From a virus, in IMG/VR virus record IMGVR_UViG_3300042308_001049, positions 1 to 64,000 of that record: 64,000 nt of DNA. The stretch is one strand, 5' to 3'. Below are positions 30,833 to 45,885 of the stretch, in pieces (within the stretch, counting starts at the first letter, position 1; each line of letters opens with the position of its first letter). The position numbers and the translations under genes are program-made. The notes under the pieces were generated by a model. The model saw nothing but the letters and a program-made list of their open reading frames with translations. It did no database searches and was not told the DNA's origin.

Positions 30833-31192
30833 ATGAAAAAATCAATACTACGAGAGATAATTAAAGAAGAAATCTTTAAAGCATTAAAAGAAGTCACTAT
30901 TAGTAAAGAATATGAAACCCTTTACCTTGATGTAGATGATATTATTGATAACCTACTTAAATTAGAAGGAGTCACTATAGATAATGTAGATGGCATTGCC
31001 ACTAAATTATTTGGAGTTGATCCACAAGAAAATCCAGAGGCTTACGATGTTAGGTTTGATTATAAAAATGGGACTATAGATTATAGACCATTAAAGCCTA
31101 CCCTAAAAGGTGAAACTTTTCTTGAGACCTTAATGGATACATACGAGAAAAAATATAAATCTGATTTATTCTCCCCAGAAAAACCATACTAA
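30833..31192 (+). CDS. Hypothetical protein with LREIIKEEI N-terminal motif
   Basis: 119 aa; ATATTTAT 4 nt upstream. Confidence 0.75.
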   Translation: MKKSILREIIKEEIFKALKEVTISKEYETLYLDVDDIIDNLLKLEGVTIDNVDGIATKLFGVDPQENPEAYDVRFDYKNGTIDYRPLKPTLKGETFLETLMDTYEKKYKSDLFSPEKPY

Positions 31193-31427
31193 CGGGTTTG
31201 GCTACCTAAAATATCTATCATACATTTAGATAAATAAAAAGTAAATAAGATATGAGTAATTCAAATGTACCCTTACATTATCTAATACTTAAAAAAATTC
31301 TATTCATTATATTTGGATGGAGATAAAAAAAGTTCAAACTTTAAGCTTTTTATTAACACCTCCCCATCCCAATATCCGTATATACGACCCTCCAATAGGA
31401 GGGTTGTTTTAACTCCATTTTAAAACC

Positions 31428-31640
31428 ATGGCTCGTAAAAAACGTCAACAGTGTCAAATTAACCAAAAACGTTATGATAAAACGATATTATACGAGAATA
31501 AAACATGGCATGTAGTACATGAGCAAGATGGTTTATCATTTGCTGTTCAAGAAATAAGGAAAGGAGTAGTTGGTGGTAGAGTATTTCCATTTGCCCCTAA
31601 AGGCTTGGCTACTCAAAGAACAGATGTTATATTCATATAA
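31428..31640 (+). CDS. Hypothetical protein
   Basis: 70 aa; C-terminus encoded by next promoter repeat. Confidence 0.65.
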   Translation: MARKKRQQCQINQKRYDKTILYENKTWHVVHEQDGLSFAVQEIRKGVVGGRVFPFAPKGLATQRTDVIFI

Positions 31641-31658
31641 ATTAAAAAACAAGTAGTT

Positions 31659-31817
31659 ATGTTTGAAGCTAAGGTAGGTTATGATGCGGGTAATGGTGAA
31701 ATGTTTGTAGACCAAACCCAGGTATTTGAAACCGAGACAGAAGCAGAAGATTGGCTTGAATTTATGATGAACATGAGTTCAGATTATGATGTGGTTGAAA
31801 TCAATAAAATCAATTAA
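31659..31817 (+). CDS. Acidic 52 aa early protein
   Basis: MFEAKVGYD...; own promoter at 31604 and GTTATG leader. Confidence 0.7.
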   Translation: MFEAKVGYDAGNGEMFVDQTQVFETETEAEDWLEFMMNMSSDYDVVEINKIN

Positions 31818-31818
31818 A

Positions 31819-31911
31819 ATGCATACTCAAATAATTTTACTAACAATAGTAGGAATATTGGTGCTATTGGGAGTGTATGGAATCGATTGGAATAAAACAA
31901 AAACAAAATAA
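31819..31911 (+). CDS. 30 aa membrane peptide
   Basis: MHTQIILLTIVGILVLLGVYGIDWNKTKTK. Confidence 0.45.
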   Translation: MHTQIILLTIVGILVLLGVYGIDWNKTKTK

Positions 31912-31915
31912 CAAT

Positions 31916-32140
31916 ATGAATAACAATAATAACAATACCCAGCAACTCGATTACACGTATGAGGAACTTCAGGGTAAAGTAGTAATACTCTCACTATTGG
32001 AGGACGACGGAGAAGGAGGATACGATGAGAATAAAGAGTTCATCGAGGTACTATCTAAAAACGATTATGAGGACCTAGAACAAACGGTAGCCGAGTATCG
32101 AGAACAGGGAGTATTGGATGAGTATTATGTTGTGAAATAA
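31916..32140 (+). CDS. Acidic hypothetical protein
   Basis: MNNNNNNTQQ...; D/E-rich. Confidence 0.65.
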   Translation: MNNNNNNTQQLDYTYEELQGKVVILSLLEDDGEGGYDENKEFIEVLSKNDYEDLEQTVAEYREQGVLDEYYVVK

Positions 32141-32149
32141 TAACACCGG

Positions 32150-32805
32150 AATTTAACGCGTACGTACGTAGTACGTACGTGGTACTGATGTACTGATGTG
32201 TGTAAAGTGTGTGTGGGGTGCTGGGAAAACTAGCACCCCATATCTATGGATTTAAGTAGATAATGAGATATAAAGATAATTAGATAATAATATAGGAAGA
32301 TAATAATATAAGTAGATACAAATGTGGTCTGCTACATATAGATGTATATTGGGAGATAAGGAGATACGGATGTGTGTGGAAAACGGGCGGACGAGTGGGT
32401 GGGGTGAGGGGTGGGGGGAGTGAACCCCCTCAACATGCACAAGCCAAGCCTTAGTCTCGATAAGAGATATAAGGATATATCAAAAAATGATAAAAGTTTT
32501 GACAGGGTTTGTTTGGCTTCCCCATCTCTTTTGACATTCTTTTGACAGAGTTTTGACAAAGTTTTAAAAAAAGAACAAAAAAAGCTGACAAAGGGGTTTT
32601 ACCCCCGGGGGATCTTCTGGGGGAGGGGGAGATCTTTCCACGCGATAGGCAAACCCTGTCCACCCCTATGGTTAATAGGCAAGATCTATCACCATTTTTT
32701 TGACATTCTTTTGACAGAGTTTTGACATTTTGTTTGGCCCCCTAAGAAATCTTTATTATCTTTATATTGGGGAAACCTACCCCGGGGGGGGGAGAGGAAA
32801 GTAGG
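32150..32805. other. Non-coding block, candidate origin or genome-end region
   Basis: TACG palindrome (32159-32179), 11-bp hairpin (32214-32240), AGATA repeats, G4 motif (32397-32418), phased TTTTGACA repeats, IR GACAGGGTTTG/CAAACCCTGTC. Confidence 0.55.
32529..32727 (+). repeat. Two identical 30-bp units, each with three TTTTGACA at 11-bp spacing
   Basis: TTTTGACATTCTTTTGACAGAGTTTTGACA at 32529-32558 and 32698-32727; extra TTTTGACA at 32497. Confidence 0.9.
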
Positions 32806-32860
32806 TTTGGCTTCGTAAGAGAGGGATGTTATATTTAGGTGTAATTAAAAAATAAATGTT

Positions 32861-33040
32861 ATGAGTATTGAAAACAGTTTCTCAGGTATCACTTTCCAAA
32901 TGGCTAAGGCGTTAGGTAAGTATCAAGGCTTTGCTCAGTTCTTGAAAGAAGGAAATGACACAATGACTAAAGAACAGATCATTGCTCGTTTAATTGAGAT
33001 TGATGAGGAGTTTGAGGCCAATGTTAAGAAAAAATCATAG
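32861..33040 (+). CDS. 59 aa early protein (paralog A)
   Basis: MSIENSF...AKALGKYQG...TKEQIIARL. Confidence 0.8.
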   Translation: MSIENSFSGITFQMAKALGKYQGFAQFLKEGNDTMTKEQIIARLIEIDEEFEANVKKKS

Positions 33041-33095
33041 GCTTGGCTACCCAAAAGATAGATGTTATATTTAGGTGTAATTAAAAATTAAGGTT

Positions 33096-33275
33096 ATGGG
33101 AAACGAATTCATCAACATGCTCCAAACAGCAATGCGTTTTGCAAGTGCATTAGGTAAGCACGAGGGTAATATCAAATTTATCCTAAATGAACAAGATAAT
33201 CTCTCCAAAGAAGATATTATTCGCTACTTACAGGAGACATATGATGAAGTAAATTCAATACTTTCTCAGGAATAA
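33096..33275 (+). CDS. 59 aa early protein (paralog B)
   Basis: MGNEFIN...ASALGKHEG...SKEDIIRYL. Confidence 0.8.
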   Translation: MGNEFINMLQTAMRFASALGKHEGNIKFILNEQDNLSKEDIIRYLQETYDEVNSILSQE

Positions 33276-33337
33276 GTTTGGCTACCCAAAAGATAGATGT
33301 TATATTTAGGTGTAATTAAAAATTAAAAATAAAGGTT

Positions 33338-33502
33338 ATGGCAAACATGAGTTATTGCAGGTTCGAAAACACTTACCACGATTTGGTAGATTGTTTTGAC
33401 AACATTTGGAGTGAAGCTGAGAATGAAAGAGATGAGCGTTACCGTCAACGAATGATTGAGTTTTTGAAAGAACGGATTGATGATATTGAAGAAATGGAGT
33501 GA
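33338..33502 (+). CDS. 54 aa early protein (NMSYCRFENT type)
   Basis: MANMSYCRFENTYHDLVDC; own promoter. Confidence 0.8.
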   Translation: MANMSYCRFENTYHDLVDCFDNIWSEAENERDERYRQRMIEFLKERIDDIEEME

Positions 33503-33562
33503 GGGGCTTGGCCCCCCACTTTTTTCTTATTATATTTAGACGTAATTAAAAATTAAATGGTT

Positions 33563-33793
33563 ATGAAGATTATTAAAGTTACAAGTCTTAAAGACAAATC
33601 ATCAATATACATAAATGTTGAACAAATAGGGCATTTTTTTAGAGTTCCTAAAAGAATGAATTACGGTCGTGTTGAGGAAGAAGAAAATACCAGAGTAGGA
33701 GTTACAACTCATAATAATGGTGGATTTTCAATAGTTGAAACTCCTGAAACATTGTTAAAGTTAATTGATAAGGTTTTGGCTCCTCAAAAGTAG
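33563..33793 (+). CDS. FlbD-like small early protein
   Basis: MKIIKVT...IYINVEQI...IVETPETL; start at GGTTATG. Confidence 0.7.
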   Translation: MKIIKVTSLKDKSSIYINVEQIGHFFRVPKRMNYGRVEEEENTRVGVTTHNNGGFSIVETPETLLKLIDKVLAPQK

Positions 33794-33829
33794 TTTGTTA
33801 TATTTAGACGTAATTAAAAATTAAAGGTT

Positions 33830-33901
33830 ATGAAAAAGCAAGCATTTGTTATCGCGGTGATCACATTTATCTCAACTGCTATTGTGTTGTACGCAAAATA
33901 A
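33830..33901 (+). CDS. 23 aa membrane peptide
   Basis: MKKQAFVIAVITFISTAIVLYAK exactly fills the space between two promoter repeats. Confidence 0.7.
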   Translation: MKKQAFVIAVITFISTAIVLYAK

Positions 33902-33958
33902 GGTTTGGCTACATTAAAAATAGATGTTATATTTAGGTGTAATTAAAAATTAAAGGTT

Positions 33959-34126
33959 ATGAAACATCCAGAGTATTCAAGAGCAAATAATGAGTATCAA
34001 GGTCGTAGTGAAGCGCCCCGTATTCCAAGAGAAGCAAGATTAGCTTTGAAACAGAGAATGATTGATTTTGGAGTGCATTTGAAGGCACTTGAAGAGAAGA
34101 TTAAGAGAGAGAAGCCAGTGTATTAA
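33959..34126 (+). CDS. 55 aa basic early protein
   Basis: MKHPEYSRAN...; own promoter. Confidence 0.78.
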   Translation: MKHPEYSRANNEYQGRSEAPRIPREARLALKQRMIDFGVHLKALEEKIKREKPVY

Positions 34127-34127
34127 G

Positions 34128-34220
34128 GTCACTTAAGAGGTAAGTGATACAGGGGGGCGGGGGCCCCCCTTTTATATTCTCCCTGGGGCTACTTACAGAC
34201 TCCTGCCTAGGGTTCCCCAC
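34128..34220 (-). ncRNA. Candidate small RNA from reverse-oriented early promoter
   Basis: Minus-strand CTTG-N20-TATATTTAGGTG (34253-34218) followed by GC-rich, ORF-less, hairpin-forming sequence. Confidence 0.5.
34151..34173 (+). terminator. Intrinsic terminator
   Basis: AGGGGGGC-GGGG-GCCCCCCT-TTT. Confidence 0.75.
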
Positions 34221-34309
34221 CTAAATATACGTAAATTTTTCCGGCAAGCCAAGCTTGGCTAACAGGGGGATTATTCGTATATTTAAATGTAATTAAAAAC
34301 GAAACGGTT

Positions 34310-34465
34310 ATGTATCATTTAAATTGCCCTTACTACAAAAAGAAGTTTGAGACCATTTATGAGTTGTTAGATGATATTGTGTTGTCAGGAATGGACCCTA
34401 ACTATACAGTATACAAAGATGGTAAGAGTGTAGGGACTAAAGCTATTCACTTAATTCAGTTTTGA
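34310..34465 (+). CDS. 51 aa early protein
   Basis: MYHLNCPYY...SGMDPNY. Confidence 0.78.
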   Translation: MYHLNCPYYKKKFETIYELLDDIVLSGMDPNYTVYKDGKSVGTKAIHLIQF

Positions 34466-34521
34466 TTTGGTTACCCAAAATATATTTTGTATATTTAAAT
34501 GTAATTAAAAATTAAATGGTT

Positions 34522-34713
34522 ATGGAAGATAATAAAGTTGTAGTAGACACAGTAATTGATTTGCTAAACAATATGGATTGTGATGGTGAAACAATGCAAT
34601 TTATACTTAAAAAAGTAGGAATGGAATGGCAGATGTTAAGGCAGTTGATGTTAACTATGCCTATAGAACAGGTAGAATATCTGATAGACGAACGGAAGGA
34701 TTTGGGTATTTAA
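34522..34713 (+). CDS. 63 aa early protein
   Basis: Own promoter; C-terminus overlaps next promoter. Confidence 0.78.
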   Translation: MEDNKVVVDTVIDLLNNMDCDGETMQFILKKVGMEWQMLRQLMLTMPIEQVEYLIDERKDLGI

Positions 34714-34752
34714 GAGAACGTTCGTATATTTAATCAAATAAAAATAATGGTT

Positions 34753-34920
34753 ATGAAAATAGGAGACAAAGTAAAGTATGATGGTGAAGCTCACCTAATT
34801 GTAAACATTGTAGATGGTTACCCAGTAGTGGTACCTATGAGTGTAATTGATGATGAGTGTTTTATCATTGAGTATGAAGGTGATGGGTGTCACGAATTTG
34901 ATTTGATCCCGATAAAATAA
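34753..34920 (+). CDS. 55 aa acidic early protein (SH3/KOW-like start)
   Basis: MKIGDKVKY... Confidence 0.75.
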   Translation: MKIGDKVKYDGEAHLIVNIVDGYPVVVPMSVIDDECFIIEYEGDGCHEFDLIPIK

Positions 34921-34926
34921 ATGGTT

Positions 34927-35145
34927 ATGAGTAAAATTAAGTTTTTAAAAGAAATGTTTATTGAATGTTGTATTGGATTTGATGATTTTGGAGATCCAAT
35001 AATGGAAGAGGAAAAAGTATTAAAAGGTGAGGAATTTGAAGTAGATATTGTTAGTGATGAAGTTGATGAAGATATTATCCAAATTCAATTTGGGAATGGT
35101 TCTGTTAGTTTTATTGATAGAAATGATATTGAAATAGAGGACTAA
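34927..35145 (+). CDS. Highly acidic early protein
   Basis: GGTTATG leader; D/E-rich. Confidence 0.78.
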   Translation: MSKIKFLKEMFIECCIGFDDFGDPIMEEEKVLKGEEFEVDIVSDEVDEDIIQIQFGNGSVSFIDRNDIEIED

Positions 35146-35222
35146 TAAAATAAGGGTGGGGAGCAGGTTTGGCTTCGCCAGAGAGGGATGTTATATTTAG
35201 ACGTAATTAAAAATTAAAGGTT

Positions 35223-35714
35223 ATGAAAGCAAAAGAAATGTCAGAAGAGGTTTATGATGAGTTGATCCGTTTGGATTACCACCGCAAAGTGAATTCAGTG
35301 TATGAAGTTAACACCTCAGTAGATTTTAGTAGTTTTGATAAAGAAACTCAAAAGGCAATTAGTACGTTTCCTGTTCTTATGTTTAATCCAGATACTGACT
35401 TAATGGATATTGAGAATCTAGATGGGGAACAGCAGTTTTATATTTTGTTTACTCGAAATAGAAACTATTTGATTGATACTCAAGGTTATACTTACCCACG
35501 TTATATTATTGGGTTGAATAACTTGAAGTTCGAAGAAGATGAAGACGACATCTACGAACGTATGGAAGGCTTGGTTCGTATTGCCGACAGTAAGATTTTT
35601 GATGAGGTAACAAAGAGTTTGGCTTTCGAATTAAATAAAGAAGACTTTGACCACGAAGATATTGTAAACTATTTGTTTATGAAGGTTCAATTAGCGCTTG
35701 GCTCACACCGATAA
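35223..35714 (+). CDS. Acidic early protein, 163 aa
   Basis: Own promoter; YLIDTQGYTYPRY motif. Confidence 0.82.
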   Translation: MKAKEMSEEVYDELIRLDYHRKVNSVYEVNTSVDFSSFDKETQKAISTFPVLMFNPDTDLMDIENLDGEQQFYILFTRNRNYLIDTQGYTYPRYIIGLNNLKFEEDEDDIYERMEGLVRIADSKIFDEVTKSLAFELNKEDFDHEDIVNYLFMKVQLALGSHR

Positions 35715-35752
35715 TTTTATTATATTTAGGTGTAATTAAAAAATAAATGGTT

Positions 35753-35917
35753 ATGAATGGAATGTTTTATGTAGTGGTTGAACAAGATGTGGCCTCAGTT
35801 GTAAATGCTAGTTTGGCTTTGACTCTCGAAATGGATCCATATTTTGATGGTGAATTGTATGGTGCTTATTCAAGTTATGAACAGGCTGCTGATCATGCCA
35901 ACCAGGTCAATCTCTAA
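35753..35917 (+). CDS. 54 aa early protein
   Basis: MNGMFYVVVE... Confidence 0.75.
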   Translation: MNGMFYVVVEQDVASVVNASLALTLEMDPYFDGELYGAYSSYEQAADHANQVNL

Positions 35918-35980
35918 AGATTGATTTGGCTACCCAGAATATTTTTGTTATATTTAAATGTAATTAAAAATTAAAAGGTT

Positions 35981-36676
35981 ATGAAAGAGCAACTGATTGA
36001 GCAAATTGAAGGTTTAAAAGCCATCAAAGAAGAAGCACGCAATAACAAGGCTATGAAAATTAGTTCTTTGTTTCATGAGGTGTTTGATTTGAAAGATGTA
36101 GAATATTCAAATCTGAATATTGGTTCTGAACGGGCTGAGTTTAGCTTCAATAATGAATATTCTGGTCAGTTTACAGTTTTGTATTACGAGACATATGGTG
36201 ATGATGAGACCAAATTAGAAGTAAGTGTACCATCATCTTACAGTGAAGATGTTTCACGTTTGATTCAGTGGGGTAAGATTGCAGAACAAATTGAATTGAA
36301 GGGTAGTGAGTTTTTAACTAAACTAAAAGTACTCCGAAACGAATATAAAGCAGGAATTGAGGTCACTAACAACATGTTGTATGAGGCTGAAACTAGATTG
36401 AAGTTTATTCAAAATAAAGAAAATGCAGTTGATTTAGAATTGACTAAAACGGCTTTGAGAACTGTAGGTCATCAATTTGAAACAGGTCATTGGGTGCAAG
36501 TAGGAGCAATGGATAGTGTTTATACTGACAGTATCCGGATTGAACAAACACCAGGTAAGAAAACATATAAAGTTCATTATGTAAACTTAGGCCGCCCGGC
36601 TACATATGAACGAGTACGAGAAATGTATATCAATAAATTGGCTCAAGAATTGGTAAATAACTCTAAAAACGCCTAA
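35981..36676 (+). CDS. Early protein, 231 aa
   Basis: Own promoter; coiled-coil segments. Confidence 0.82.
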   Translation: MKEQLIEQIEGLKAIKEEARNNKAMKISSLFHEVFDLKDVEYSNLNIGSERAEFSFNNEYSGQFTVLYYETYGDDETKLEVSVPSSYSEDVSRLIQWGKIAEQIELKGSEFLTKLKVLRNEYKAGIEVTNNMLYEAETRLKFIQNKENAVDLELTKTALRTVGHQFETGHWVQVGAMDSVYTDSIRIEQTPGKKTYKVHYVNLGRPATYERVREMYINKLAQELVNNSKNA

Positions 36677-36678
36677 CC

Positions 36679-36810
36679 ATGAACCAGCAAGAATTAACCA
36701 CCAAGTTGATTGAATTGAAATCACAGGTAACAGGCACAACACCTTACGCATACGGTTTGTTAGACGGTTTAACAATGGCAATAGAAGAAATAGAGAGTCC
36801 CCGATCATAA
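36679..36810 (+). CDS. 43 aa protein
   Basis: MNQQELTTKLIEL...YGLLDGLTMAIEEIESPRS; stop lies in anti-leader hairpin. Confidence 0.6.
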   Translation: MNQQELTTKLIELKSQVTGTTPYAYGLLDGLTMAIEEIESPRS

Positions 36811-36842
36811 CCATTTTTAATTACACCCGCGTTATGGGGACT
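36796..36842 (+). ncRNA. Hairpin complementary to the shared early leader (candidate antisense RNA element)
   Basis: AGTCCC(CGAT)CATAAC-loop CATTTTTAATTACACCCGC-GTTATG GGGACT; 36806-36827 is the reverse complement of GGTGTAATTAAAAATGGTTATG. Confidence 0.55.
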
Positions 36843-36843
36843 A

Positions 36844-36873
36844 GGGGAGCCAGGTTTGGCTCCCCACTCTTTT
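36844..36873 (+). terminator. Terminator hairpin overlapping the -33 box of next promoter
   Basis: GGGGAGCCA-GGTT-TGGCTCCCC-actctttt. Confidence 0.7.
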
Positions 36874-36909
36874 ATTGTTATATTTAGACGTAATTAAAAA
36901 TTAAAGGTT

Positions 36910-37176
36910 ATGCTGTTAGTAGAGTTTAAAGAAATGGTTAACGACGGTAAAATATTCTCCGTTGTATTTACTAAGAAGGATGGTACGATCCGAAAAATGG
37001 TAGCGCGGTTAGGGGTGCGTAAGCATCTTAAGGGAGGCGAATTGAAATACGACGCCGCTGCCCGCAATTTATTGCCTGTATTTGATATGGAGAAAGAAGA
37101 ATATCGTATGATTAATGTTTCAACCATACAAGAAATTAAAGTGGGTGGTGCTAAGATTGATTTGGCTACGCTATAA
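36910..37176 (+). CDS. SH3/Sm-like beta-barrel protein (DUF2693/WYL-like)
   Basis: FSVVFTKKDGTIRKM...VFDMEKEEYRMIN. Confidence 0.75.
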   Translation: MLLVEFKEMVNDGKIFSVVFTKKDGTIRKMVARLGVRKHLKGGELKYDAAARNLLPVFDMEKEEYRMINVSTIQEIKVGGAKIDLATL

Positions 37177-37215
37177 TTTGATGTTATATTTAGACGTAAT
37201 TAAAAATTAAGTGTT

Positions 37216-37461
37216 ATGAAAAAAGTGCAGTTTAAAAGTGACGTTTATGGTTTCGTTTACGATTCAGTTTATGGCGAAGTTAGTAAAGTGTTTAATACAC
37301 CTTTAAATGAATCAGAATTAGAATTAATTGAGAGTGTATTAAGTGAAGATGATTGTATTTTCACAGATATTGATTCAGTAAATGCAGTGTTTGAATTTGA
37401 TGAGAATAGTTTGGAGTGTGATGTTGAGGGTTTGAATACAGTATTAGAGTACGCAGAATAA
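37216..37461 (+). CDS. Highly acidic early protein
   Basis: 81 aa; own promoter. Confidence 0.8.
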   Translation: MKKVQFKSDVYGFVYDSVYGEVSKVFNTPLNESELELIESVLSEDDCIFTDIDSVNAVFEFDENSLECDVEGLNTVLEYAE

Positions 37462-37470
37462 AATAAAAAC

Positions 37471-37507
37471 AAAGGTGGTGATGAGCTTGGCTCACGCCAC
37501 CTTTTTT
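37471..37507 (+). terminator. Terminator/promoter hybrid, near-duplicated at 37822-37858
   Basis: AAAGGTGGTG-A-TGAGC-TTG-GCTCA-CGCCACCTTT-TTT. Confidence 0.75.
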
Positions 37508-37542
37508 ATTATATTTAAACGTAATTAAAAAATTAAAAGGTT

Positions 37543-37812
37543 ATGAAAATGATTGATTTAAATGTTGCTTTTAGAGAGGCGATGGATGTAGCATCTTATG
37601 AAGATGTATTGGGTATTATAGAGAGTTATGAGGATGAAAGTATATTAGATGACTTTAAACTTGAGTTTGTTGAAGGTGAAGATATTAGTAAAGATGACTA
37701 TAGTTACTTCTCTATTAGTTTGATAGATGATATAAGTGAAGTTGGTTATATACAGGCCAATTGGATTTATATTTGGGATAAGGATATTTTTGAAAAGACT
37801 GAGTTACTTTAA
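37543..37812 (+). CDS. Highly acidic early protein
   Basis: 89 aa; flanked by ~70-bp direct repeats. Confidence 0.8.
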   Translation: MKMIDLNVAFREAMDVASYEDVLGIIESYEDESILDDFKLEFVEGEDISKDDYSYFSISLIDDISEVGYIQANWIYIWDKDIFEKTELL

Positions 37813-37891
37813 AATAAAAACAAAGGTGGCGATGGGCTTGGCTCACGCCACCTTTTTTATTATATTTAACCGTAATTAAAAATTAATGGTT

Positions 37892-38152
37892 ATGAAAGCA
37901 AAAGGAATTAAAGCAATGATGACGTTGCTGGAGAAGAAGGGTTGCAAGGTGTGTGGCACCACAGAGGATTTTTACGGCCGCCATAACAGCACACCAGGCG
38001 TTTGGATCGCAGCAGACCACACACCTGAATTGTTCAACTACTGGAGTTCAAATGGAGTATTGATTAGTGGTAAGTTGAATAGGGCAGTTCAGAAAGCCGG
38101 ATGGTGGTTTGAGTGGCACGATCCAGGAACGATTATGGTATGGCCACACTAA
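37892..38152 (+). CDS. Early protein
   Basis: GWWFEWHDPGT C-terminal motif. Confidence 0.8.
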   Translation: MKAKGIKAMMTLLEKKGCKVCGTTEDFYGRHNSTPGVWIAADHTPELFNYWSSNGVLISGKLNRAVQKAGWWFEWHDPGTIMVWPH

Positions 38153-38231
38153 CCAGGGTGGGGAGCCGGTTTGGCTCCCCGCTTATTTTTTGTTATATTT
38201 AGATGTAATTAAAAATTAAAAACAAAAGGTT

Positions 38232-38426
38232 ATGACAGTTCAAGAATTGATTGATAAGTTGAGTCAGGTTAAAAACAAAAACTTAGAAGTAGTAGTTCAG
38301 GTTACTGACCCAACAGATTGGGAGTACAACAACTCAATTGAATTTACTGAGGTTCAAAGTGTATTATTGGTTGAGGATGATGATGATGAGACTGAAGTAT
38401 TTGTAATTAATGGGGGTGATGTTTGA
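38232..38426 (+). CDS. Acidic early protein (MTVQELI type)
   Basis: 64 aa; own promoter. Confidence 0.8.
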   Translation: MTVQELIDKLSQVKNKNLEVVVQVTDPTDWEYNNSIEFTEVQSVLLVEDDDDETEVFVINGGDV

Positions 38427-38490
38427 TCACCCCTTATTTTTTTACCCCAAAAAGGGATGTTATATTTAGACGTAATTAAAAATAATGGTT

Positions 38491-38823
38491 ATGAAAAACG
38501 AAAAAATGATCGTGAATGAAGAGTTGATCGGTAAATACATCAACCAGGTATTGTGGAGCGATGTTAATCCGGTAGGCAAAATTATCGCAATCAAAGGCAA
38601 AACCAAAGTATTGATTCAACCGGTTTGTGCCAGCAAAAATAAAGCCAAAATGGAATTCGTACCGGGTGGTTTTTCAGCGGTGTGTTTGAATCAAAATGAA
38701 CAACATTACGATTTCATGGAGGTGGGAGAGGTATTTGAAACGACTCTGAGCCATGCCAAGATGAAAAAAGCGTTCTGGAATATTGACGACGCACCATATA
38801 AGCAATATGATTATAACTTCTAA
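38491..38823 (+). CDS. Early protein
   Basis: FVPGGFSAVC.NQ..Q, YDYNF. Confidence 0.8.
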   Translation: MKNEKMIVNEELIGKYINQVLWSDVNPVGKIIAIKGKTKVLIQPVCASKNKAKMEFVPGGFSAVCLNQNEQHYDFMEVGEVFETTLSHAKMKKAFWNIDDAPYKQYDYNF

Positions 38824-38836
38824 ATAGAAGATACGG

Positions 38837-38873
38837 AGAGGGGAAAGGGCCGAAAGGCTCTTTCTTCTTTTTT
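38837..38873 (+). terminator. Intrinsic terminator closing the array
   Basis: AAAGGGCC-GAAA-GGCTCTTT with extension and T tract. Confidence 0.8.
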
Positions 38874-39165
38874 GGAAAAGAGGGGTGTACGTGGTACGTG
38901 ATATATACTTTATATGTGGTATATCCCCCCGCGCGCTGTTATCCATACATGCTTGGATACTGGGAAAGAATTTTTTTGATGTAAGGATGAAATAAAGGTA
39001 ACTTCCACCATCGGATAGTATATACTTATATATTTGCACCGCCCACCATACCCCCATACCACACCATCCTATACCATGCCCATCCCCCACACCCACACCC
39101 CAATTTCCGGATTTGCCCTTTTACCCATTTTTTCCAGCTCCCTAAATCCTTCTTTCTTAAAAAAG
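38874..39165. other. Non-coding block with C-rich tract
   Basis: GTACGTGGTAC shared with 32175; CCCATCCCCCACACCCACACCCC (minus-strand G4 motif, 39079-39101). Confidence 0.5.
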
Positions 39166-39227
39166 TTTGGCTACCATAAGGTATATACATATATTCAGGT
39201 ATTAATGAAAACAAAGTAAATAAGTTT

Positions 39228-39446
39228 ATGTGGGCATTTGCAGTTGTAGGAGCATTATTACTATTCGCGTTTATTAACGGTTTAATTCACTTATTTAAAC
39301 CAGACAAACCCACTATCATTAGATGTATCGCCTTTATGGTCGGGTTGGTATTATCCAATATTTTATTTGATTGGGGAATTGAACGTATGGAATGGTTTTT
39401 AGGACTGTCTATTACTATGGTGGGTCTTTGGAAATGGTATGAGTAA
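39228..39446 (+). CDS. Small membrane protein
   Basis: About three TM segments; promoter at 39166. Confidence 0.7.
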   Translation: MWAFAVVGALLLFAFINGLIHLFKPDKPTIIRCIAFMVGLVLSNILFDWGIERMEWFLGLSITMVGLWKWYE

Positions 39447-39564
39447 GGAGCGTATATACGGATATGTGGATGTGGGTGGGATGCAAGGAAACTTTCGAGC
39501 TGAGGCTTGGCTTCCCAAGATTTTTTCCATAACTTCACCCCACTGGAGTTAATAAATTAAGGTT

Positions 39565-39723
39565 ATGAAGATTCGCTTTAATGATACATTTCTATTTATT
39601 ATTGGAATTATATTTTTCATAGGAGGATATTTTACTGAGACTATAGGTTCATATTTTGTATTTGGTTTATGTCTTGGTACTTTAATTAATCACGCTGTCC
39701 AAGATTTTAAGAATAAAAAATAA
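39565..39723 (+). CDS. 52 aa membrane protein
   Basis: GGTTATG leader; two hydrophobic segments; TAATG coupling. Confidence 0.6.
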   Translation: MKIRFNDTFLFIIGIIFFIGGYFTETIGSYFVFGLCLGTLINHAVQDFKNKK

Positions 39724-40226
39724 TGAGTTACTATTCAGAAACATCTATTAAACATCCTATTCAAAAGATTACTTATGAAGAGGCTAAACAATATATTCCC
39801 TTAAAAGAAGATTATACTGGTGTAACAGTAGATAAATGTCCATACTACACCATGACTGAAGGTGAGGACGGGTGGACTCTGGTGACATATTACACTGGGA
39901 GAAAACGAGCGAGGTATGTTAACCTAGATAAAGAATATGATTCATGGGTTTATGTTATATCTAACCCTAGCATTCCTGGTCAAATAAAAATTGGTTATAC
40001 TGATCTTACTCCTGAGAAACGAGCTCAACAATTGTCTCGATCAACAGGTGTTCCAACTCCATTTATTGTTGAATGGGCATTCCATTGTTTTAATGGGGCT
40101 CAATTGGAAGGTGAGGTTCATCGTTACTTAGAGGCATCACGTGTGTCTGGTAATAGAGAATTTTTTGATACTTCTATTAGTGAAGCTAGAGACACTATTG
40201 TTAGGTTCGGACAAAATTATCTTTAG
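39723..40226 (+). CDS. T5orf172/GIY-YIG-like domain protein
   Basis: WVYVISNP..PG.IKIGYT...R..QL...TGVPTPF, LE..VH, REFF. Confidence 0.88.
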   Translation: MSYYSETSIKHPIQKITYEEAKQYIPLKEDYTGVTVDKCPYYTMTEGEDGWTLVTYYTGRKRARYVNLDKEYDSWVYVISNPSIPGQIKIGYTDLTPEKRAQQLSRSTGVPTPFIVEWAFHCFNGAQLEGEVHRYLEASRVSGNREFFDTSISEARDTIVRFGQNYL

Positions 40227-40282
40227 GTTTGGCTACCCAAGAATATATACATATATTTAGGTGTTAATTAAAAATTAAAGTT

Positions 40283-41467
40283 ATGAGTAAAACAAAGAAA
40301 CATGATCTGGTATCGGTAAACGTGAATGAGCTCAAAGAGTTCCTTACCCATATCATCAACAACAACCGTTACCTGCAAGAGAATGGTAAGCCATCAGTTT
40401 CAATTGAAGTTGTAGGTGAATCAGGTATTGGTAAAACATCTTCAATCATCCAGCTAGCTAATGAGTTGGATTTGCATTTTGTTAAATTGAACCTCGCACA
40501 AATTGAAGAAATTGGTGACTTGGTTGGTTTTCCAATCCGTCAATTTGAACTTACAAAAGGTTCTGATAAAGTATGGGTTGATGAGAATTTGATTAAAGAA
40601 TATCAAGATCAAGGTTTTAAATCAACTGGTTTGAACCGAATGAGTTACTGCGCACCTGAATGGATTAGTGGTAAAGAAAAAGGAGGTATTTTGCTTCTGG
40701 ATGACTGGAACCGCGCTGATATTCGTTTCATTCAAGCTGTAATGGAGCTGATTGATCGTCAACAATATATTAGCTGGACATTACCTAAAGATTGGCATAT
40801 CATTTTGACTGCTAATCCTGACACAGGTGAATATTTGGTTAATAGTATTGATAACGCACAAAAAACACGATTTATTTCAGTTAATCTAAAGTATGATGTT
40901 GACTGTTGGGGTAAATGGGCTGAAGAAAATGAAATGGATGGTCGTTGTATCAACTTCATGCTTATGCATCCTGAATTGGTTACTAAAGAGATAAACAGCC
41001 GAAGTGTTAGTATGTTCTTTAATTCTATTTCTTCACTTAAGAATTTTGAAGAGTCATTGCCTCTAATTCAAATGGTTGGAGAAGGATCAGTTGGTTCTGA
41101 GTTTAGTACTATGTTCACTATGTTTATTAATAACAAGTTGGACCGTATGATTACTCCTGAGAATATCTTGAACCAAGATGAAAAGTATGTTATGAATACT
41201 TTAAAAAGTTTAGTTGGTAAGGAAGATAAATATCGAGCAGATATTGCCTCAACACTCTCAACTCGATTGGCTAACTATTTGGATATTAAAGCTAAAACTG
41301 AGAAAATCTCAAATGAAATTATTAACCGTATCTCGGCACTGGTAAAGGAGGAAATTTTTACCACTGATATCTGTTACAATATGGTTAAGAATATCTACAA
41401 TAGTAATCCGACACAGTTCAAGATGATGATGGTAGATAAGAATTTGGTTAAATATATTATGAAATAA
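40283..41467 (+). CDS. AAA+ ATPase (MoxR-like)
   Basis: GESGIGKT, DLVGFP, LLLDDWNRA, TANP; early promoter at 40228. Confidence 0.9.
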   Translation: MSKTKKHDLVSVNVNELKEFLTHIINNNRYLQENGKPSVSIEVVGESGIGKTSSIIQLANELDLHFVKLNLAQIEEIGDLVGFPIRQFELTKGSDKVWVDENLIKEYQDQGFKSTGLNRMSYCAPEWISGKEKGGILLLDDWNRADIRFIQAVMELIDRQQYISWTLPKDWHIILTANPDTGEYLVNSIDNAQKTRFISVNLKYDVDCWGKWAEENEMDGRCINFMLMHPELVTKEINSRSVSMFFNSISSLKNFEESLPLIQMVGEGSVGSEFSTMFTMFINNKLDRMITPENILNQDEKYVMNTLKSLVGKEDKYRADIASTLSTRLANYLDIKAKTEKISNEIINRISALVKEEIFTTDICYNMVKNIYNSNPTQFKMMMVDKNLVKYIMK

Positions 41468-41470
41468 GTT

Positions 41471-42532
41471 ATGAGTAAGAATACATACGCTATATATTCA
41501 ATAAGAAATTACAACAATGATATCATTATATATGATTCAAGTAGCCAGACAAAAGACCCATATAAATTTAAAAGTAATTTTGCCCCACTTGTAGAGTTCG
41601 CTGGAGAGCTTCTTAAAGATAAATCACAAAAGCCTCATGGGAATGTTTATACAGCCACTACTTGCAAGATTCCACGTGATAAAATGAAGGTTTATTTTCA
41701 AGAAAATAATCTTAAGAAAACTACTCGTACTTATTTAGCTGATACTGTATTGATTGATCTAGAATCTCTTGATAAGGTTCTTAGAATATTTCCAAAACAA
41801 CATAGTTGGACTAAAGGATTTATGATCCCTTCAGAGGATGTTGTAAAGAATAGCCATCTTTTTGATATTGATCATAATAGAAACAATTCATGGTCTCAAC
41901 CATATTTTACAATACATGATCAAGTACTTAAAGGAGAACATGATGTTTTTATTAAAACATATGATGATAGAGCTACTCAAATTGTCAAATCGTCATTTCC
42001 AGAGGCTGAGAAAATTGAAATTTTAAGTTATCCAACTGGAGATCTTCTTAAAACACTTGAACTTCTAACTTTCCTTAAAAGTCACCCAAATATTACAGTA
42101 GTATTTGATACTACTTTAAATGAGGGGATGACTAATGAAGGTATTGAGATGGATGACGAGATTGAGAAACAAGTAATGCAAATGCTTAAATCTACAGATA
42201 TTAATGACACTAAAATGGCGATTGAGATTTGTAGTAACTTTGATTTAGAAAAATCATTGTTTCGTATTGCTTTTATGTTTAACAAACATAAGAATTGTTT
42301 TATTGGTAAGCAAAGTATGCTAACTAAAACTAGTTACAAACAAATTGATGCTTATATTCGTAGTAAAGGTATTGGTTGGATGAGTGATCGAGATACATTC
42401 TTAAGTGATATGTTTGTACTTTATAAGGATGATGAAAAAATTACTCCAATTATTAAACGACACATCCAGGACTATCTTCAATCTCAACTTAAACATACTA
42501 AAATTAAACTAACTGACATTAGTTTGGCTTAA
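41471..42532 (+). CDS. Hypothetical protein
   Basis: 353 aa between AAA and vWA genes. Confidence 0.8.
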   Translation: MSKNTYAIYSIRNYNNDIIIYDSSSQTKDPYKFKSNFAPLVEFAGELLKDKSQKPHGNVYTATTCKIPRDKMKVYFQENNLKKTTRTYLADTVLIDLESLDKVLRIFPKQHSWTKGFMIPSEDVVKNSHLFDIDHNRNNSWSQPYFTIHDQVLKGEHDVFIKTYDDRATQIVKSSFPEAEKIEILSYPTGDLLKTLELLTFLKSHPNITVVFDTTLNEGMTNEGIEMDDEIEKQVMQMLKSTDINDTKMAIEICSNFDLEKSLFRIAFMFNKHKNCFIGKQSMLTKTSYKQIDAYIRSKGIGWMSDRDTFLSDMFVLYKDDEKITPIIKRHIQDYLQSQLKHTKIKLTDISLA

Positions 42533-42571
42533 CCCAATATCTTACTTATATTTAGGTAAAAGAAATAAGTT

Positions 42572-43741
42572 ATGAATGTATATGAAGAAGTAGTTAAACA
42601 CTCAAAGAAGTTAATGTTTGACGAACCATTCTATGGGTTGATGCTCATAGCGATGAATAAGGAACTTAGTGAGCGAATTGACACTGCATGTGTTACTCGA
42701 GATAATATCAACACTAAGTTGATGGTCAATCCTGAGTTTTGGGCTACATTGGATGAGAGTACTAAAACAGGTGTTCTTAAACATGAGTTGCTCCATATCG
42801 CGTTCTTTCACCTACTTAATATGGATGGTTTTCCAGATCGTAAACTACACAACGTAGCCGCGGATTTGGAAATTAACCAGTATATTGAGGATAATTATAA
42901 AGGAGAAAAATGGGATGGTTTAGAGATTCATAAGGAACCATTTGCTAAACTTAATCTTGAACCTAAACAAGGTACTAAGTATTACTACTCAATGCTCCAG
43001 GAGGAAATTCAAAACAATCCTGAAGGTGATGTAGCCAAGTTTATGGAAGGAATGGATCCGATGCATGAGTTATGGGAAGCATTTGATGGTTTGTCTGATG
43101 CTGAAAAGAAGCTTATTGCTAAACAAATCGACCACCAACTCAAAGAAATTGCTGATCAGGTTCAAAAGAGCTGTGGTACTATACCAGGTGAGTTGAAAGA
43201 TTATGTTTTAGGTTTGTTTGAGATGGAAGAACCAGTATTGGACTGGAAAGCTTACCTACGACGTTTTAATGGTATGTCTCAAAAGATTCTTACTAAAAAG
43301 ACTCGTCGTAAACCATCTCGACGTTACCCATCTAATCCCGCCCTTAAAGTAAAGCCTAAGAAACGTACACTTGTTGCCATAGACACATCAGGTAGCGTAA
43401 ATAACGATGAATTAAAGGAGTTCTTTAATGAAATCTATCACATGTATAAAACCGGAACTGAGATTACAGTGGTTGAATGTGACGCTAAAATTCAACGAGA
43501 GTATGAATATAAAGGTAAGTTAGAAGAAATTAAGGTAGCAGGACGTGGTGGTACTGATTTTGAACCAGTGATGGTTTACCTAAAAGAACATCAAAACAAG
43601 TTTCAAAACCTAATTTATTTTACTGATGGTGAATGTAGTGCTCCTGAAACAAAACCGATGAAACCTATTTTGTGGGTTCATAGTTCACGTTCACCTATCA
43701 ATGAAGAACTCCCAGGAGCTAAAATTAAAATTACCCGATAA
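42572..43741 (+). CDS. DUF2201-type metallopeptidase plus vWA protein
   Basis: HELLH, N.AADLEINQ; MIDAS DTSGS, GGTDF, FTDG. Confidence 0.9.
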   Translation: MNVYEEVVKHSKKLMFDEPFYGLMLIAMNKELSERIDTACVTRDNINTKLMVNPEFWATLDESTKTGVLKHELLHIAFFHLLNMDGFPDRKLHNVAADLEINQYIEDNYKGEKWDGLEIHKEPFAKLNLEPKQGTKYYYSMLQEEIQNNPEGDVAKFMEGMDPMHELWEAFDGLSDAEKKLIAKQIDHQLKEIADQVQKSCGTIPGELKDYVLGLFEMEEPVLDWKAYLRRFNGMSQKILTKKTRRKPSRRYPSNPALKVKPKKRTLVAIDTSGSVNNDELKEFFNEIYHMYKTGTEITVVECDAKIQREYEYKGKLEEIKVAGRGGTDFEPVMVYLKEHQNKFQNLIYFTDGECSAPETKPMKPILWVHSSRSPINEELPGAKIKITR

Positions 43742-44526
43742 TGGCATCGAAAATTTCATTAAATAATCCTAATCCATGGAAACAACCTCTAGATGTGATT
43801 CCACTACCCTCTAATATTGAGGAAATTGTATATCCACTATTGGGTATGTGTAATAAGTTGGTTTTAGGTGGTAGTTTAGGGCTGTATGTTATGGACATTA
43901 TGGAATACAATTTTAATAAGCGTAAACCTGATATTGACTTTTCCTTAACTGAGCCTTTAACAGTTGAAGAACTTAATACTATTAAGGATTTCTTCCAGTT
44001 GGGGTTTGTATTAGGAAATAATGACTATGATTTTGAATCAGTTCAGGCTAGTCCTACTGGAGATAAAATAATAAAAACAAAATCAGCAGAACACTTCTTA
44101 ACTAAAGAACTTATCCAACTTTCGAAGTTGGATGAGAAGGGAAATGTTCTATATACTATTGACTTCTTTAATTCACAATATATGAAGTCAAAAGATGTAG
44201 TTGAGGTGAGAATACCATTTCAAGATAACCCATCTTCTAAATTCCCACTTCGAGTAAATCACCCAGCTATCACAATCTCATACAAGGCACGATACGCTTA
44301 TGATACTCGAGTAGGTAAACAGTTTAAACACTGGGAAGATATTGAAAAGATTGATAAGAAGAAGTACTTTCAAATCATTAAAAAGATTAAAACTAAACAA
44401 GTTAAGTCTACAACAACAGATACTTCTTCTAAAGACTCTTACAAGACCAAATCATACTTTGATCCATACGATAATATGGAAACAGCTTCCTCAAGTAGTA
44501 TGAGCTGGGGTAACTTACCATTCTAA
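43741..44526 (+). CDS. Pol-beta-superfamily nucleotidyltransferase-like protein
   Basis: LGGS...PDIDF...TIDFF. Confidence 0.65.
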   Translation: MASKISLNNPNPWKQPLDVIPLPSNIEEIVYPLLGMCNKLVLGGSLGLYVMDIMEYNFNKRKPDIDFSLTEPLTVEELNTIKDFFQLGFVLGNNDYDFESVQASPTGDKIIKTKSAEHFLTKELIQLSKLDEKGNVLYTIDFFNSQYMKSKDVVEVRIPFQDNPSSKFPLRVNHPAITISYKARYAYDTRVGKQFKHWEDIEKIDKKKYFQIIKKIKTKQVKSTTTDTSSKDSYKTKSYFDPYDNMETASSSSMSWGNLPF

Positions 44527-44583
44527 AGTTTGGCTACAGCGTAAATAGATGTTATATTTATATCATAGAAAAAAATAAATGTT

Positions 44584-44781
44584 ATGGATAAGTTTAAGCA
44601 AACGTTAGTTGAAGCAATTGAGGAGAATAAAGAAGAAATGATTTCTCCATCACGCGAATATACAGATAATGAAATCATCTGGATGCGTGGTTACACTCAG
44701 GCGCTTCAAGACATGTTAAATGACTTCACTGAGGACTATAACAAGTTCATTGAAGATCTTATTAAAGTTCAACTTAACTAA
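44584..44781 (+). CDS. Hypothetical protein
   Basis: 65 aa; early promoter at 44529. Confidence 0.75.
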   Translation: MDKFKQTLVEAIEENKEEMISPSREYTDNEIIWMRGYTQALQDMLNDFTEDYNKFIEDLIKVQLN

Positions 44782-44796
44782 TATTTATATTTTATT

Positions 44797-44876
44797 GCAC
44801 CCGTGGTGAAACAGGTAGACACAAGGGACTTAAAATCCCTCGCGCAAGCATGCCGGTTCGATTCCGGCCGGGTGTA
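44797..44876 (+). tRNA. tRNA-Leu(TAA)
   Basis: GCACCCG/CGGGTGT acceptor, AGGGA-CTTAAAA-TCCCT, GGTTCGATTCC. Confidence 0.93.
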
Positions 44877-44881
44877 CAAAG

Positions 44882-44941
44882 AAGGGGAGACTAAGGTTTC
44901 CGGCTACAAGTTGTTCGCGACAATAAGGTAGGTAGCCCCTT
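44882..44941 (+). ncRNA. Candidate ~60-nt three-way-junction RNA
   Basis: AAGG/CCTT, GGAGAC/GTTTCC, GGCTAC/GTAGCC, TTGT/ACAA helices between two tRNAs. Confidence 0.45.
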
Positions 44942-44948
44942 AAAACAT

Positions 44949-45022
44949 GGTCCGGTAGCTCAGTTGGATAGAGCATCGCACTTCTAATGCGACGGTCGAA
45001 GGTTCGAATCCTTCTCGGATCA
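44949..45022 (+). tRNA. tRNA-Arg(TCT)
   Basis: TCGCA-CTTCTAA-TGCGA; canonical D and T arms. Confidence 0.95.
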
Positions 45023-45030
45023 CTAAATAC

Positions 45031-45107: not shown

Positions 45108-45108
45108 C

Positions 45109-45233: not shown

Positions 45234-45236
45234 AAA

Positions 45237-45322: not shown

Positions 45323-45339
45323 CATAATACCACGTTATA

Positions 45340-45801: not shown

Positions 45802-45809
45802 CAAACAAA

Positions 45810-45878: not shown

Positions 45879-45885
45879 TAAAAAT

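Follow-up and report, generated by a model that had tools for sequence, protein, structure and literature searches.

A run of 20 small open reading frames (ORFs) at positions 32806-38873 of the window analyzed here, which is the first 64 kb of the 130,563-bp IMG/VR virus record IMGVR_UViG_3300042308_001049 (linear and, according to CheckV, 81% complete), is served by 18 copies of one promoter-leader unit of about 55 bp, all on the plus strand between 32807 and 38491. We consider it probable that this array is the densest part of the hyperplastic small-gene region of a T4-like myovirus, in which each gene or pair of genes is carried by its own self-contained and recombining expression cassette. 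Each cassette would comprise a promoter, with TTGGCT at about -33 followed by 17 bases and TATATTTA at about -12 to -5, and a 5′ leader of about 20-26 nt that has A at -6 and a tract of A between -10 and -14; in 6 of the 18, a GC-rich hairpin with a run of T would be added, in which the -33 box forms the 3′ arm or the loop. The genes are numbered g01 to g20 below, the record under study is labeled G000, and a 160,908-bp relative that is rated 100% complete is labeled G001.

The unit reads TTGGCT, 17 bases, TATATTTA and an A/T-rich leader that ends with GGTTATG or a close variant. Both promoter boxes are present in 17 of the 18 copies, and the remaining one has its -7 box at 38461 and a leader, without the TTGG box. 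The initial annotation had claimed at least 17 promoter/leader copies in front of ORFs of 23-231 aa, which agrees with the 18 units and 20 ORFs counted here, two of the units preceding two ORFs each (g09 with g10, and g13 with g14). In the column counts over the 18 copies, the TT of TTGGCT is invariant, GG is found in 17, C in 15 and the last T in 17, and all eight bases of TATATTTA are found in every copy; then follow G or A, a variable base, C or T, and G, after which TAATTAAAAA is conserved in 17-18 copies. Exact repeats within the array reach 49 bp in one case and otherwise 40 bp at most, mostly 28-40 bp. The leader motif TATATTTARRYGTAATTAAAAA, with up to two mismatches allowed, is matched 19 times in the window, always on the plus strand, where 0.01 matches are expected from shuffles, and 17 of these matches lie inside 32806-38873. 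The spaced pair TTGG-N14-26-TATATTTA is matched 28 times versus 0.80 expected, and TTGG-N19-TATATTTA, when sought in the whole record, occurs 27 times on the plus strand and once on the minus strand, with 17 of the 27 falling in the array (32807-38171). When 31000-47500 is scanned as a whole for generic sigma-70 sites, on the other hand, no enrichment is seen (74 sites versus 61.4 ± 8.5 in shuffles), and the signal lies in the specific motif. Full copies of the unit are also found outside the array, at 22196-25106, 40229-46635 and 90521, together with weaker ones at 31605, 32734 and 39167. The motif is therefore a genome-wide class whose densest run is 32806-38873, and the bounds drawn in the initial annotation hold for the array while the motif itself extends beyond them.

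PHROG matches to both clamp-loader subunits, DNA ligase and primase, and to baseplate wedge proteins, tail sheath, portal, head protease, major head protein and large terminase, identify the record, by its protein content, as that of a distant T4-like myovirus, a large uncultured phage from a lake, and nearly all long ORFs of the window lie on the plus strand. The large terminase has its best match, at 60.6% identity, in Flavobacterium phage vB_FspM_immuto (160 kb, NC_055915.1; host, Flavobacterium sp. LMO8; hereafter immuto), the nearest cultured relative of the record, and the runner-up is a Microcystis phage at 51.8%. In the start contexts of 183 ORFs, A is found at -11 to -13 in 104-109, and because G is rare in this A-rich stretch there is no Shine-Dalgarno signal. 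According to the available text of two studies (PMC6847099, PMC9723704), A at -3, -6, -12 and -13 favors translation at Bacteroidota start sites, which have no Shine-Dalgarno sequence; since the start contexts of the record match the pattern described for the phylum (PMC6847099), a Bacteroidota host, probably Flavobacterium-like, seems likely. DNA searches of the phage collection at near-identity, with the array and an 1828-aa gene as queries, gave no match. The leader motif gave single matches only in IMG/VR, in six contigs, and the ATPase adjoining the array (40283-41467) has more than 590 relatives there.

The promoter boxes of the array can be compared with those of the presumed host phylum. 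Promoters of the Bacteroidota housekeeping sigma factor, sigma-ABfr, are described in the available text as TTTG at -33 and TANNTTTG at -7, the latter box lying at -12 to -5, with T-12, A-11, T-8, T-7, T-6 and G-5 nearly invariant (PMC6847099, PMC9723704) and the -33 box "much less evident" (PMC6847099). The array units share the -33/-7 geometry, in that TTG is followed by 20 nt up to the -7 box in 17 of the 18 (with T before TTG in 12), and keep five of the six near-invariant positions, T-12, A-11, T-8, T-7 and T-6, in all 18, without G at -10 or -9; they differ in having A in place of G at -5 and a far stronger -33 box. The initial annotation had assigned the spacing to the Bacteroidota sigma70 promoter, and this assignment stands as to geometry and fails at -5. 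As judged from these boxes, the phage promoter class is a systematic variant of the host consensus. The two boxes would act as a transcription signal, because copies that have no leader precede tRNA genes in both G000 and G001.

Several observations weigh against the reading proposed above, and the first of them concern who reads this promoter. A occupies -5 in every one of the 18 units, where G is near-invariant in the host; the canonical, G-ending box combined with a -33 box is found in the genome at chance, 5 times on either strand, as compared with 40 on the plus strand and 10 on the minus strand for the A-ending form; and, read as an ordinary sigma-70 promoter, TTGGCT-17-TATATT, the motif likewise reaches a score of 9 of 12. 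With A at -5 and the G-ending form at chance, the host sigma factor may recognize these sites inefficiently or depend on a phage factor. Carried further, this becomes an alternative that we regard as unlikely, namely, that the class is not read by unmodified sigma-A at all and requires a phage-encoded or phage-modified factor, as middle-type promoters do, which would explain both the invariant A and the lineage-specific sequence just downstream. The same A-ending box is used in G001, and the boxes of immuto are A-ending almost exclusively; the phage encodes a DksA-like zinc-finger protein; and a middle-promoter version of the cassettes discussed below, the PmSLs, is described in phage nt-1 (PMC4122927, in its available text). 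However, a phage with no promoter readable by the host could not start its program, and no class with a -33 box other than that of TTGG and TATATTTA is abundant. No AsiA, MotA or sigma family was found in the PHROG scans of the ORFs examined, which came from the 81%-complete record apart from 84-88 kb and 126-130.6 kb, and the only sigma-like ORF found has a sub-threshold match to region 2 and none to region 4.

That ORF, of 240 aa at 49151-49873, immediately precedes the baseplate genes and has a conserved counterpart in G001; its match to Sigma70 region 2 reaches 17.7-19.3 bits against a cut-off of 24, and no match to region 4 was found in it. It might be connected with a second motif class, ATATTTATA, which has no conserved upstream box, occurs 30 times on the plus strand and never on the minus strand of the whole record, and stands mostly just before structural genes (for example, at 49876, 52270, 28145 and 30053 of the window). 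We take this second class to be probably that of the late promoters. The sigma factor that recognizes the late promoters (TATAAATA) of T4, gp55, has no region 4. The ORF at 49151-49873 is, on its weak region-2 match, a candidate for a late sigma factor of the same type as gp55, the late sigma of T4 (PMC3014915, in its available text). A conserved -33 box, on the contrary, would call for a sigma factor with region 4, most simply the housekeeping sigma factor of the host, acting early in infection. By exclusion, if the ATATTTATA class is late, we infer that the class with the -33 box is most simply early and read by the host, although the early timing of the array promoters is a guess.

With the -7 box placed at -12 to -5, the predicted start of transcription falls about 5 nt downstream, which leaves a leader of about 20-26 nt. 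The leader is A/T-rich, predicted to be unstructured, and has A at -5 to -7 and -10 to -14 from the ATG; it agrees with A-6, A-12 and A-13 among the positive determinants of Bacteroidota, and its position -3 is G, not A. In these features the leader fits the start-site rules of the phylum, without a Shine-Dalgarno sequence. Leaders are more alike within a genome (identity of 0.73-0.85) than between genomes (0.49-0.58). Their homogeneity in each lineage might also be the mark of an operator at which a phage post-transcriptional shut-off factor, like RegA of T4, acts, a suggestion that we find decidedly improbable. The leader, with its A tract, UU and GGUUAUG, resembles the consensus obtained for T4 RegA by SELEX, aaAAUUGUUAUGUAA, as well as the A/U-rich, unstructured natural operators of RegA (PMC3014915, in its available text). 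A 122-aa ORF at 2824-3192 directly follows the gp62-like clamp-loader gene, and regA, which likewise encodes 122 aa, is described as occupying the position after gene 62 in all T4-related phages (PMC3014915). The known preference of Bacteroidota for A-rich start sites, however, already accounts for the leader, and a search of the 81%-complete record for the RegA family, PF01818, gave nothing at E values up to 10. As for the 122-aa ORF, its RegA identity was considered and rejected, as it matches neither the family nor the sequence of any solved RegA structure; the ORF is DUF1599-like, at a score just below the threshold (24.9 versus 25 bits).

The third, optional part of the cassette emerged when the span from 30 nt upstream of each TTGG box through the -7 box was folded. 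Strong GC-rich hairpins (dG from -19.5 to -24.3) were found in the units of g04, g15, g17, g18, g19 and g20. In five of these six, TTGGCT constitutes the loop and the 3′ arm, with 4-6 consecutive T after it in the promoter spacer, while the g20 unit, which has no TTGG box, shows a T run behind its hairpin. Such a unit would, as predicted, terminate the upstream transcript and start the next one. Also to be set against our reading is the restriction of strong hairpins to 6 of the 18 units: 11 others have none, and one more hairpin stands upstream of cassette 7, where a GC-rich stem with a T run (34151-34170, plus strand) follows g06, 85 nt before the cassette. In the units without hairpins, the -33 box adjoins the stop codon upstream of it or overlaps with it (gaps, -18 to +23 nt).

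The recombining nature of the cassettes is derived from comparison with relatives. A metagenome scan with the leader motif gave 117 stretches, and 79 listed loci were analyzed, with genes mapped by tblastn. The contigs are short-read assemblies that are not independent of one another and can switch strain at shared repeats, which counts against too literal a reading of the gene orders that follow. The order differs from that of G000 in 24 of the 39 contigs in which at least two genes were mapped, and in 17 of the 39, by hand count, when a cassette that lies outside the array in G000 (x44584, described below) is left aside; several of the g18 hits, at 52-55% identity, may represent a paralogue and not a moved gene. 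The initial annotation had named a fixed gene order in relatives, along with a lack of transcription starts at the repeats, as the outcome that would refute its reading, and the order is not fixed. Alternative orders recur in several contigs, as g19-g11-g13-g14 does in five (L123, L161, L165, L167 and L180). Contig L161 is a mosaic in its identity to G000, with 91% for g16, 55% for g18, 100% for g19 and 54% for g11, and one of its shared blocks, about 97% identical, extends from the -33 box of g19 through g19, the hairpin and the next promoter-leader to just past the next ATG, flanked on both sides by unrelated sequence. Contig L130 is 99.9% identical to G000 over g09-g12 and 91% over g08, and has three extra cassettes between them, each with a unit of its own; the right junction lies at the start of g09, and the first codons of g09 differ. 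Altogether, 90 of 170 internal ends of homology blocks lie in a unit or within 10 nt of one, as compared with 23% expected, an excess that is partly anticipated whenever neighbors differ and repeats are conserved, in contigs that, moreover, are not independent. Comparison among these sequences shows whole cassettes that appear to have been gained, lost, exchanged between lineages and moved, in shared blocks that begin inside one promoter and stop at the next start codon, and the exact repeats of 28-49 bp appear, from the same comparison, to be the substrates for homologous recombination. The shuffling by recombination between repeats that had been put forward in the initial annotation thus gains support from the altered orders and from the junctions of L130 and L161.

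More distant relatives keep the architecture and exchange the content. The core proteins of G001 are mostly about 40-80% identical to those of G000, and G001 has 33 strict promoter copies, all on one strand, with its own version of the leader. Its dense array is syntenic, lying upstream of the gene with a T5orf172 domain and of the baseplate module, and shares only g03 and g08 with that of G000; a homologue of g15 is found elsewhere in G001. In immuto, a relaxed form of the motif gives 36 forward and 8 reverse matches, versus 5 and 6 for the control, and 23 of the matches fall in a syntenic block of small hypothetical genes at 58-80 kb. This block (NC_055915.1, about 60.9-76.2 kb) resembles the array of G000 in having the same two boxes and spacing and one unit for each small gene, and both arrays are bordered upstream by a DksA-like gene and an HNH gene and downstream by T5orf172, phosphohydrolase and baseplate genes; the differences are that the leader of immuto is a version of its own and that, of the 20 genes, g08 alone is shared. 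g08 is also the sole array gene common to both G001 and immuto. Its homologue in immuto (72433-72645; 50% identity over 50 aa) is annotated as "ABC-type histidine transport ATPase component," which for a protein of about 70 aa looks like a misannotation. A literature search found no description of immuto promoters, and NC_055915.1 annotates coding sequences only.

The stability of the array in close strains also argues against an actively recombining region. Eighteen lake-water runs from 2016 to 2024 hold 92-97% of the words of the array, contigs from two other samples are identical to it over 33925-35213 and 35196-36904, and three immuto isolates, about 100% identical to one another, align in one piece across their array. 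Shuffling would therefore be slow, since near-identical strains keep the array unchanged. Given that the longest repeat is 49 bp, ordinary assemblies should cross the repeats; the contigs of the DNA runs break at nearly every unit and, for this reason, cannot confirm the order across units, while those of the two other samples reproduce the g08-g09 junction of G000. Two wetland metatranscriptome runs hold 6-9% of the words of the array. Their contigs belong to relatives, 88-99% alike, and cover parts of g08-g11 and g18-g20, in a different cassette order that joins the end of g19 to the g09 promoter; these contigs show neither starts nor strand and may hold DNA, and no conclusion on expression is drawn from them, a further limit on the reading we prefer.

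One alternative that would accommodate this stability is that the repeats are expression signals kept alike by selection for strong expression and have no role in rearrangement, the differences in order being due to illegitimate recombination, ordinary divergence or chimeric metagenome assembly. The exact repeats are indeed short (at most 49 bp), near-identical strains and isolates are free of rearrangement, the ends of homology blocks are expected in repeats partly by construction, and short-read contigs break or can switch at repeats. We nevertheless think this alternative quite unlikely because of the order g19-g11-g13-g14 that is shared by five contigs, the blocks of L161 and L130, about 97-99.9% identical and ending inside a promoter or at a start codon beside unrelated sequence, the greater likeness of leaders within than between genomes, and the confirmation of the g08-g09 junction by contigs of two other samples. 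At the opposite extreme, the array might actively mobilize its cassettes by means of an enzyme devoted to this task, such as the T5orf172-domain protein, which is GIY-YIG-like and could cut at the units, and would then be comparable to an integron. The gene for this protein (39723-40226, plus strand) is conserved at the downstream end of the array in G000, G001 and immuto and in several metagenome relatives, and HNH endonuclease genes are nearby. A conserved position is by itself uninformative as to activity, however, and close strains are stable, the junctions resemble those of plain homologous exchange, and none of the 20 array proteins matches an integrase or recombinase family in Pfam or PHROG, in line with the integrase-free array of the initial annotation. 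In contrast to an integron, the array shows no site-specific recombinase in the family matches of its 20 proteins, and its neighbors are the T5orf172-domain gene and an ATPase gene; we hold the dedicated-enzyme explanation to be extremely unlikely. Very improbable, too, is a combined scheme in which the unit is a terminator, a phage-specific promoter with A at -5 and an RNA operator in one, kept uniform across the lineage by gene conversion, targeted at its leader by an as yet unrecognized RegA analogue with no discernible sequence kinship to RegA, and exchanged through a process triggered by T5orf172. If this three-in-one unit were real, T4-like phages of Bacteroidota would run a regulated, enzyme-assisted exchange of cassettes.

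Recombining expression cassettes of the kind we favor have a precedent in the PeSLs, units that recur in the hyperplastic regions of coliphages of the T4 type and of phages that infect Yersinia and Vibrio, with RB49/phi1, PST/T4 and nt-1/KVP40 as bearers. According to the available text of PMC2839356 and PMC4122927, a PeSL stands before an orphan gene and consists of an AT-rich upstream part, a strong early promoter of the sigma-70 type, and a Shine-Dalgarno sequence with its start codon, along with a stem-loop terminator that is variable in place and sometimes overlaps the -35 box; PeSLs border indels between close relatives, and mini-circles, promoter strength and termination were demonstrated experimentally. 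The array has in common with them the repeated promoter units immediately in front of small orphan genes within a variable part of a T4-like myovirus genome, the lineage-specific consensus, the end of the unit at the start codon, the overlap of a GC-rich stem-loop with the upstream promoter box (in some PeSL subclasses and in five array units), and the differences between relatives by whole cassettes with junctions in the units. It differs in that its boxes are of the Bacteroidota -33/-7 type but carry A at -5, its leader lacks a Shine-Dalgarno sequence, the unit measures about 55-80 bp as opposed to about 100 bp, and a strong hairpin is present in only six of the 18 units; moreover, the activity of PeSLs is known by experiment, and the array is known from sequence alone. 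The likeness to PeSLs noted in the initial annotation is supported by this layout, and the array would be a Bacteroidota-grammar version of PeSL cassettes and, as such, a variant of a known design. A further likeness that had been noted, to SPO1's host-takeover module, holds for the layout only: this module, in the terminal region of the Bacillus phage, several of whose products are toxic to the host (PMC6873191, in its available text), is likewise a compact block of about 20-26 mostly small genes with many strong promoters (predicted ones in the array) and good start sites, but no sequence relation was found.

The available text of PMC2839356 and PMC4122927 makes no mention of Bacteroidota or Flavobacterium phages (0 occurrences in PMC4122927), and a literature search, which covered articles without their supplements, found no description of such arrays in phages of Flavobacterium or other Bacteroidota. 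The PeSL principle, in which regulatory repeats double as sites for swapping accessory genes, would thus extend to a distant lineage of T4-like phages. Because host promoter rules differ and no Shine-Dalgarno sequence is used, what the design seems to require is an architecture rather than any specific set of signals. The A that never varies at -5 raises the question of how these phages recruit the RNA polymerase of Bacteroidota, and the compact natural promoter-plus-leader unit, with its optional terminator, might serve as an expression part for Flavobacteria. Bench tests are made possible by the cultured relative immuto, which has the same architecture and grows on Flavobacterium sp. LMO8.

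The cassettes follow one another on the plus strand. Cassette 1 (32807-33040) has TTGG at 32807, a -7 box at 32830, a leader and g01 (32861-33040, 59 aa). Cassettes 2 (33043-33275) and 3 (33278-33502), which share the 49-bp exact repeat, consist of a promoter-leader with g02 (33096-33275, 59 aa) and g03 (33338-33502, 54 aa), respectively; g03 belongs to phrog_8760 and has a homologue inside the G001 array. In cassette 4 (33503-33793), a hairpin at 33503-33515 (dG -20.4) overlaps the -33 box at 33508 and is followed by a T run, the -7 box, a leader and g04 (33563-33793, 76 aa), whose end is overlapped by the promoter of cassette 5 (33776-33901), which carries g05 (33830-33901), a hydrophobic ORF of 23 aa. 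A promoter-leader precedes g06 (33959-34126, 55 aa) in cassette 6 (33905-34126), g07 (34310-34465, 51 aa) in cassette 7 (34255-34465) and g08 (34522-34713, 63 aa) in cassette 8 (34467-34713). Cassette 9 (34702-35145) has a promoter with a variant leader before g09 (34753-34920, 55 aa) and g10 (34927-35145, 72 aa), and cassette 10 (35169-35714) has a promoter-leader before g11 (35223-35714, 163 aa). The promoter of cassette 11 (35698-35917) overlaps the end of g11 and is followed by a leader and g12 (35753-35917, 54 aa). Cassette 12 (35926-36810) contains g13 (35981-36676, 231 aa) and g14 (36679-36810, 43 aa), the latter without a unit of its own.

Cassette 13 (36844-37176) opens with a hairpin at 36844-36865 (dG -24.2) that holds the -33 box and carries g15 (36910-37176, 88 aa; Pfam WYL_2), and the promoter of cassette 14 (37162-37461), followed by a leader and g16 (37216-37461, 81 aa), overlaps the end of g15. 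In cassette 15 (37471-37812), the loop and 3′ arm of the hairpin at 37471-37504 (dG -21.8) contain the -33 box; a T run, the promoter-leader and g17 (37543-37812, 89 aa) follow. The -33 box is also inside the hairpins of cassette 16 (37822-38152; hairpin 37822-37855, dG -22.8; g18, 37892-38152, 86 aa) and cassette 17 (38156-38426; hairpin 38156-38184, dG -24.3; g19, 38232-38426, 64 aa). Cassette 18 (38412-38823) is the one with no TTGG, in which a hairpin at 38412-38434, the -7 box at 38461 and a leader precede g20 (38491-38823, 110 aa). The cassette designated x44584 (44530-44757, plus strand) has the same promoter and a small gene; it lies outside the array in G000 and inside it in 23 contigs of relatives. 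The only minus-strand copy of the promoter in the record (34222-34252) stands back to back with the g07 promoter across a small palindrome and would yield an antisense or small transcript; the putative transcript from 34252 matches no Rfam family and has an ordinary fold (z -0.73), and an Rfam search over 31000-40300 gave no match.

The array proteins are almost entirely orphans. Pfam names one of the 20 (g15, as WYL_2) and PHROGs three (g03, g15 and, weakly, g20), all three of these families being of unknown function; 16 of the 20 match no family in Pfam or PHROG, and functions thus left unassigned are a last point that weakens our reading. The sole resemblance among the 20 is that of the paralogues g01 and g02 (39% over 38 residues). 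In the metagenome contigs, g13 has 16 distinct homologues and g11 has 15, at 41-77% identity, and the predicted models of both are confident (pLDDT 88 for g13 and 84 for g11). A Foldseek search of the two models against the PDB gave no match at an E value of 0.001 or better; a wide structure search (VIA) with g11 returned only helical-hairpin matches with Z no higher than 5.5; and the ESM Atlas gave nothing usable for g11 and, for g13, only an unnamed viral cluster at 0.78. g05, g02 and g20 have no homologue in the metagenome contigs examined. Because none was found for g05, the status of this 23-aa ORF as a coding sequence is unproven, and we list it as putative. Accessory early functions, such as the host takeover or counter-defense proposed in the initial annotation, might be guessed for the array proteins by analogy; none of the assigned families or folds points to a target.

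The surroundings of the array offer several further observations. Just upstream, 32497-32727 contains seven of the nine TTTTGACA words of the record, clustered in a 30-bp direct repeat whose two copies, at 32529 and 32698, lie in non-coding, locally GC-rich sequence; an iteron, an origin or a regulator site are possibilities. Just downstream, at 39000-39100, a strongly C-rich block, with 44 C and 6 G in 100 nt and hence runs of G on the minus strand, is part of a non-coding stretch whose conservation in relatives is 72-81%. The GC skew over 32001-38000 amounts to 0.28-0.34, versus about 0.03-0.16 elsewhere, the coding strand being markedly poor in C, which may reflect protein composition or a transcription-linked mutation bias. 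A block of four genes at 40283-44526, encoding a MoxR-like ATPase, a 353-aa ORF, an HNH-like ORF and a 261-aa ORF, directly follows the array in G000 and some metagenome relatives and is about 40 kb away in G001. Thirteen tRNA genes at 44797-47365 are interspersed with the same promoter class (copies at 44530, 45811 and 46635), by which the cluster is apparently driven. Nine small ORFs (50-94 aa) without a PHROG family form another, smaller run at 21798-23939, which is accompanied by promoter copies at 22196, 23305 and 23963. Finally, genes of the glycosyltransferase, nucleotide-sugar epimerase and related kinds occupy a long block at 4383-18675, which is also present in G001 and immuto.

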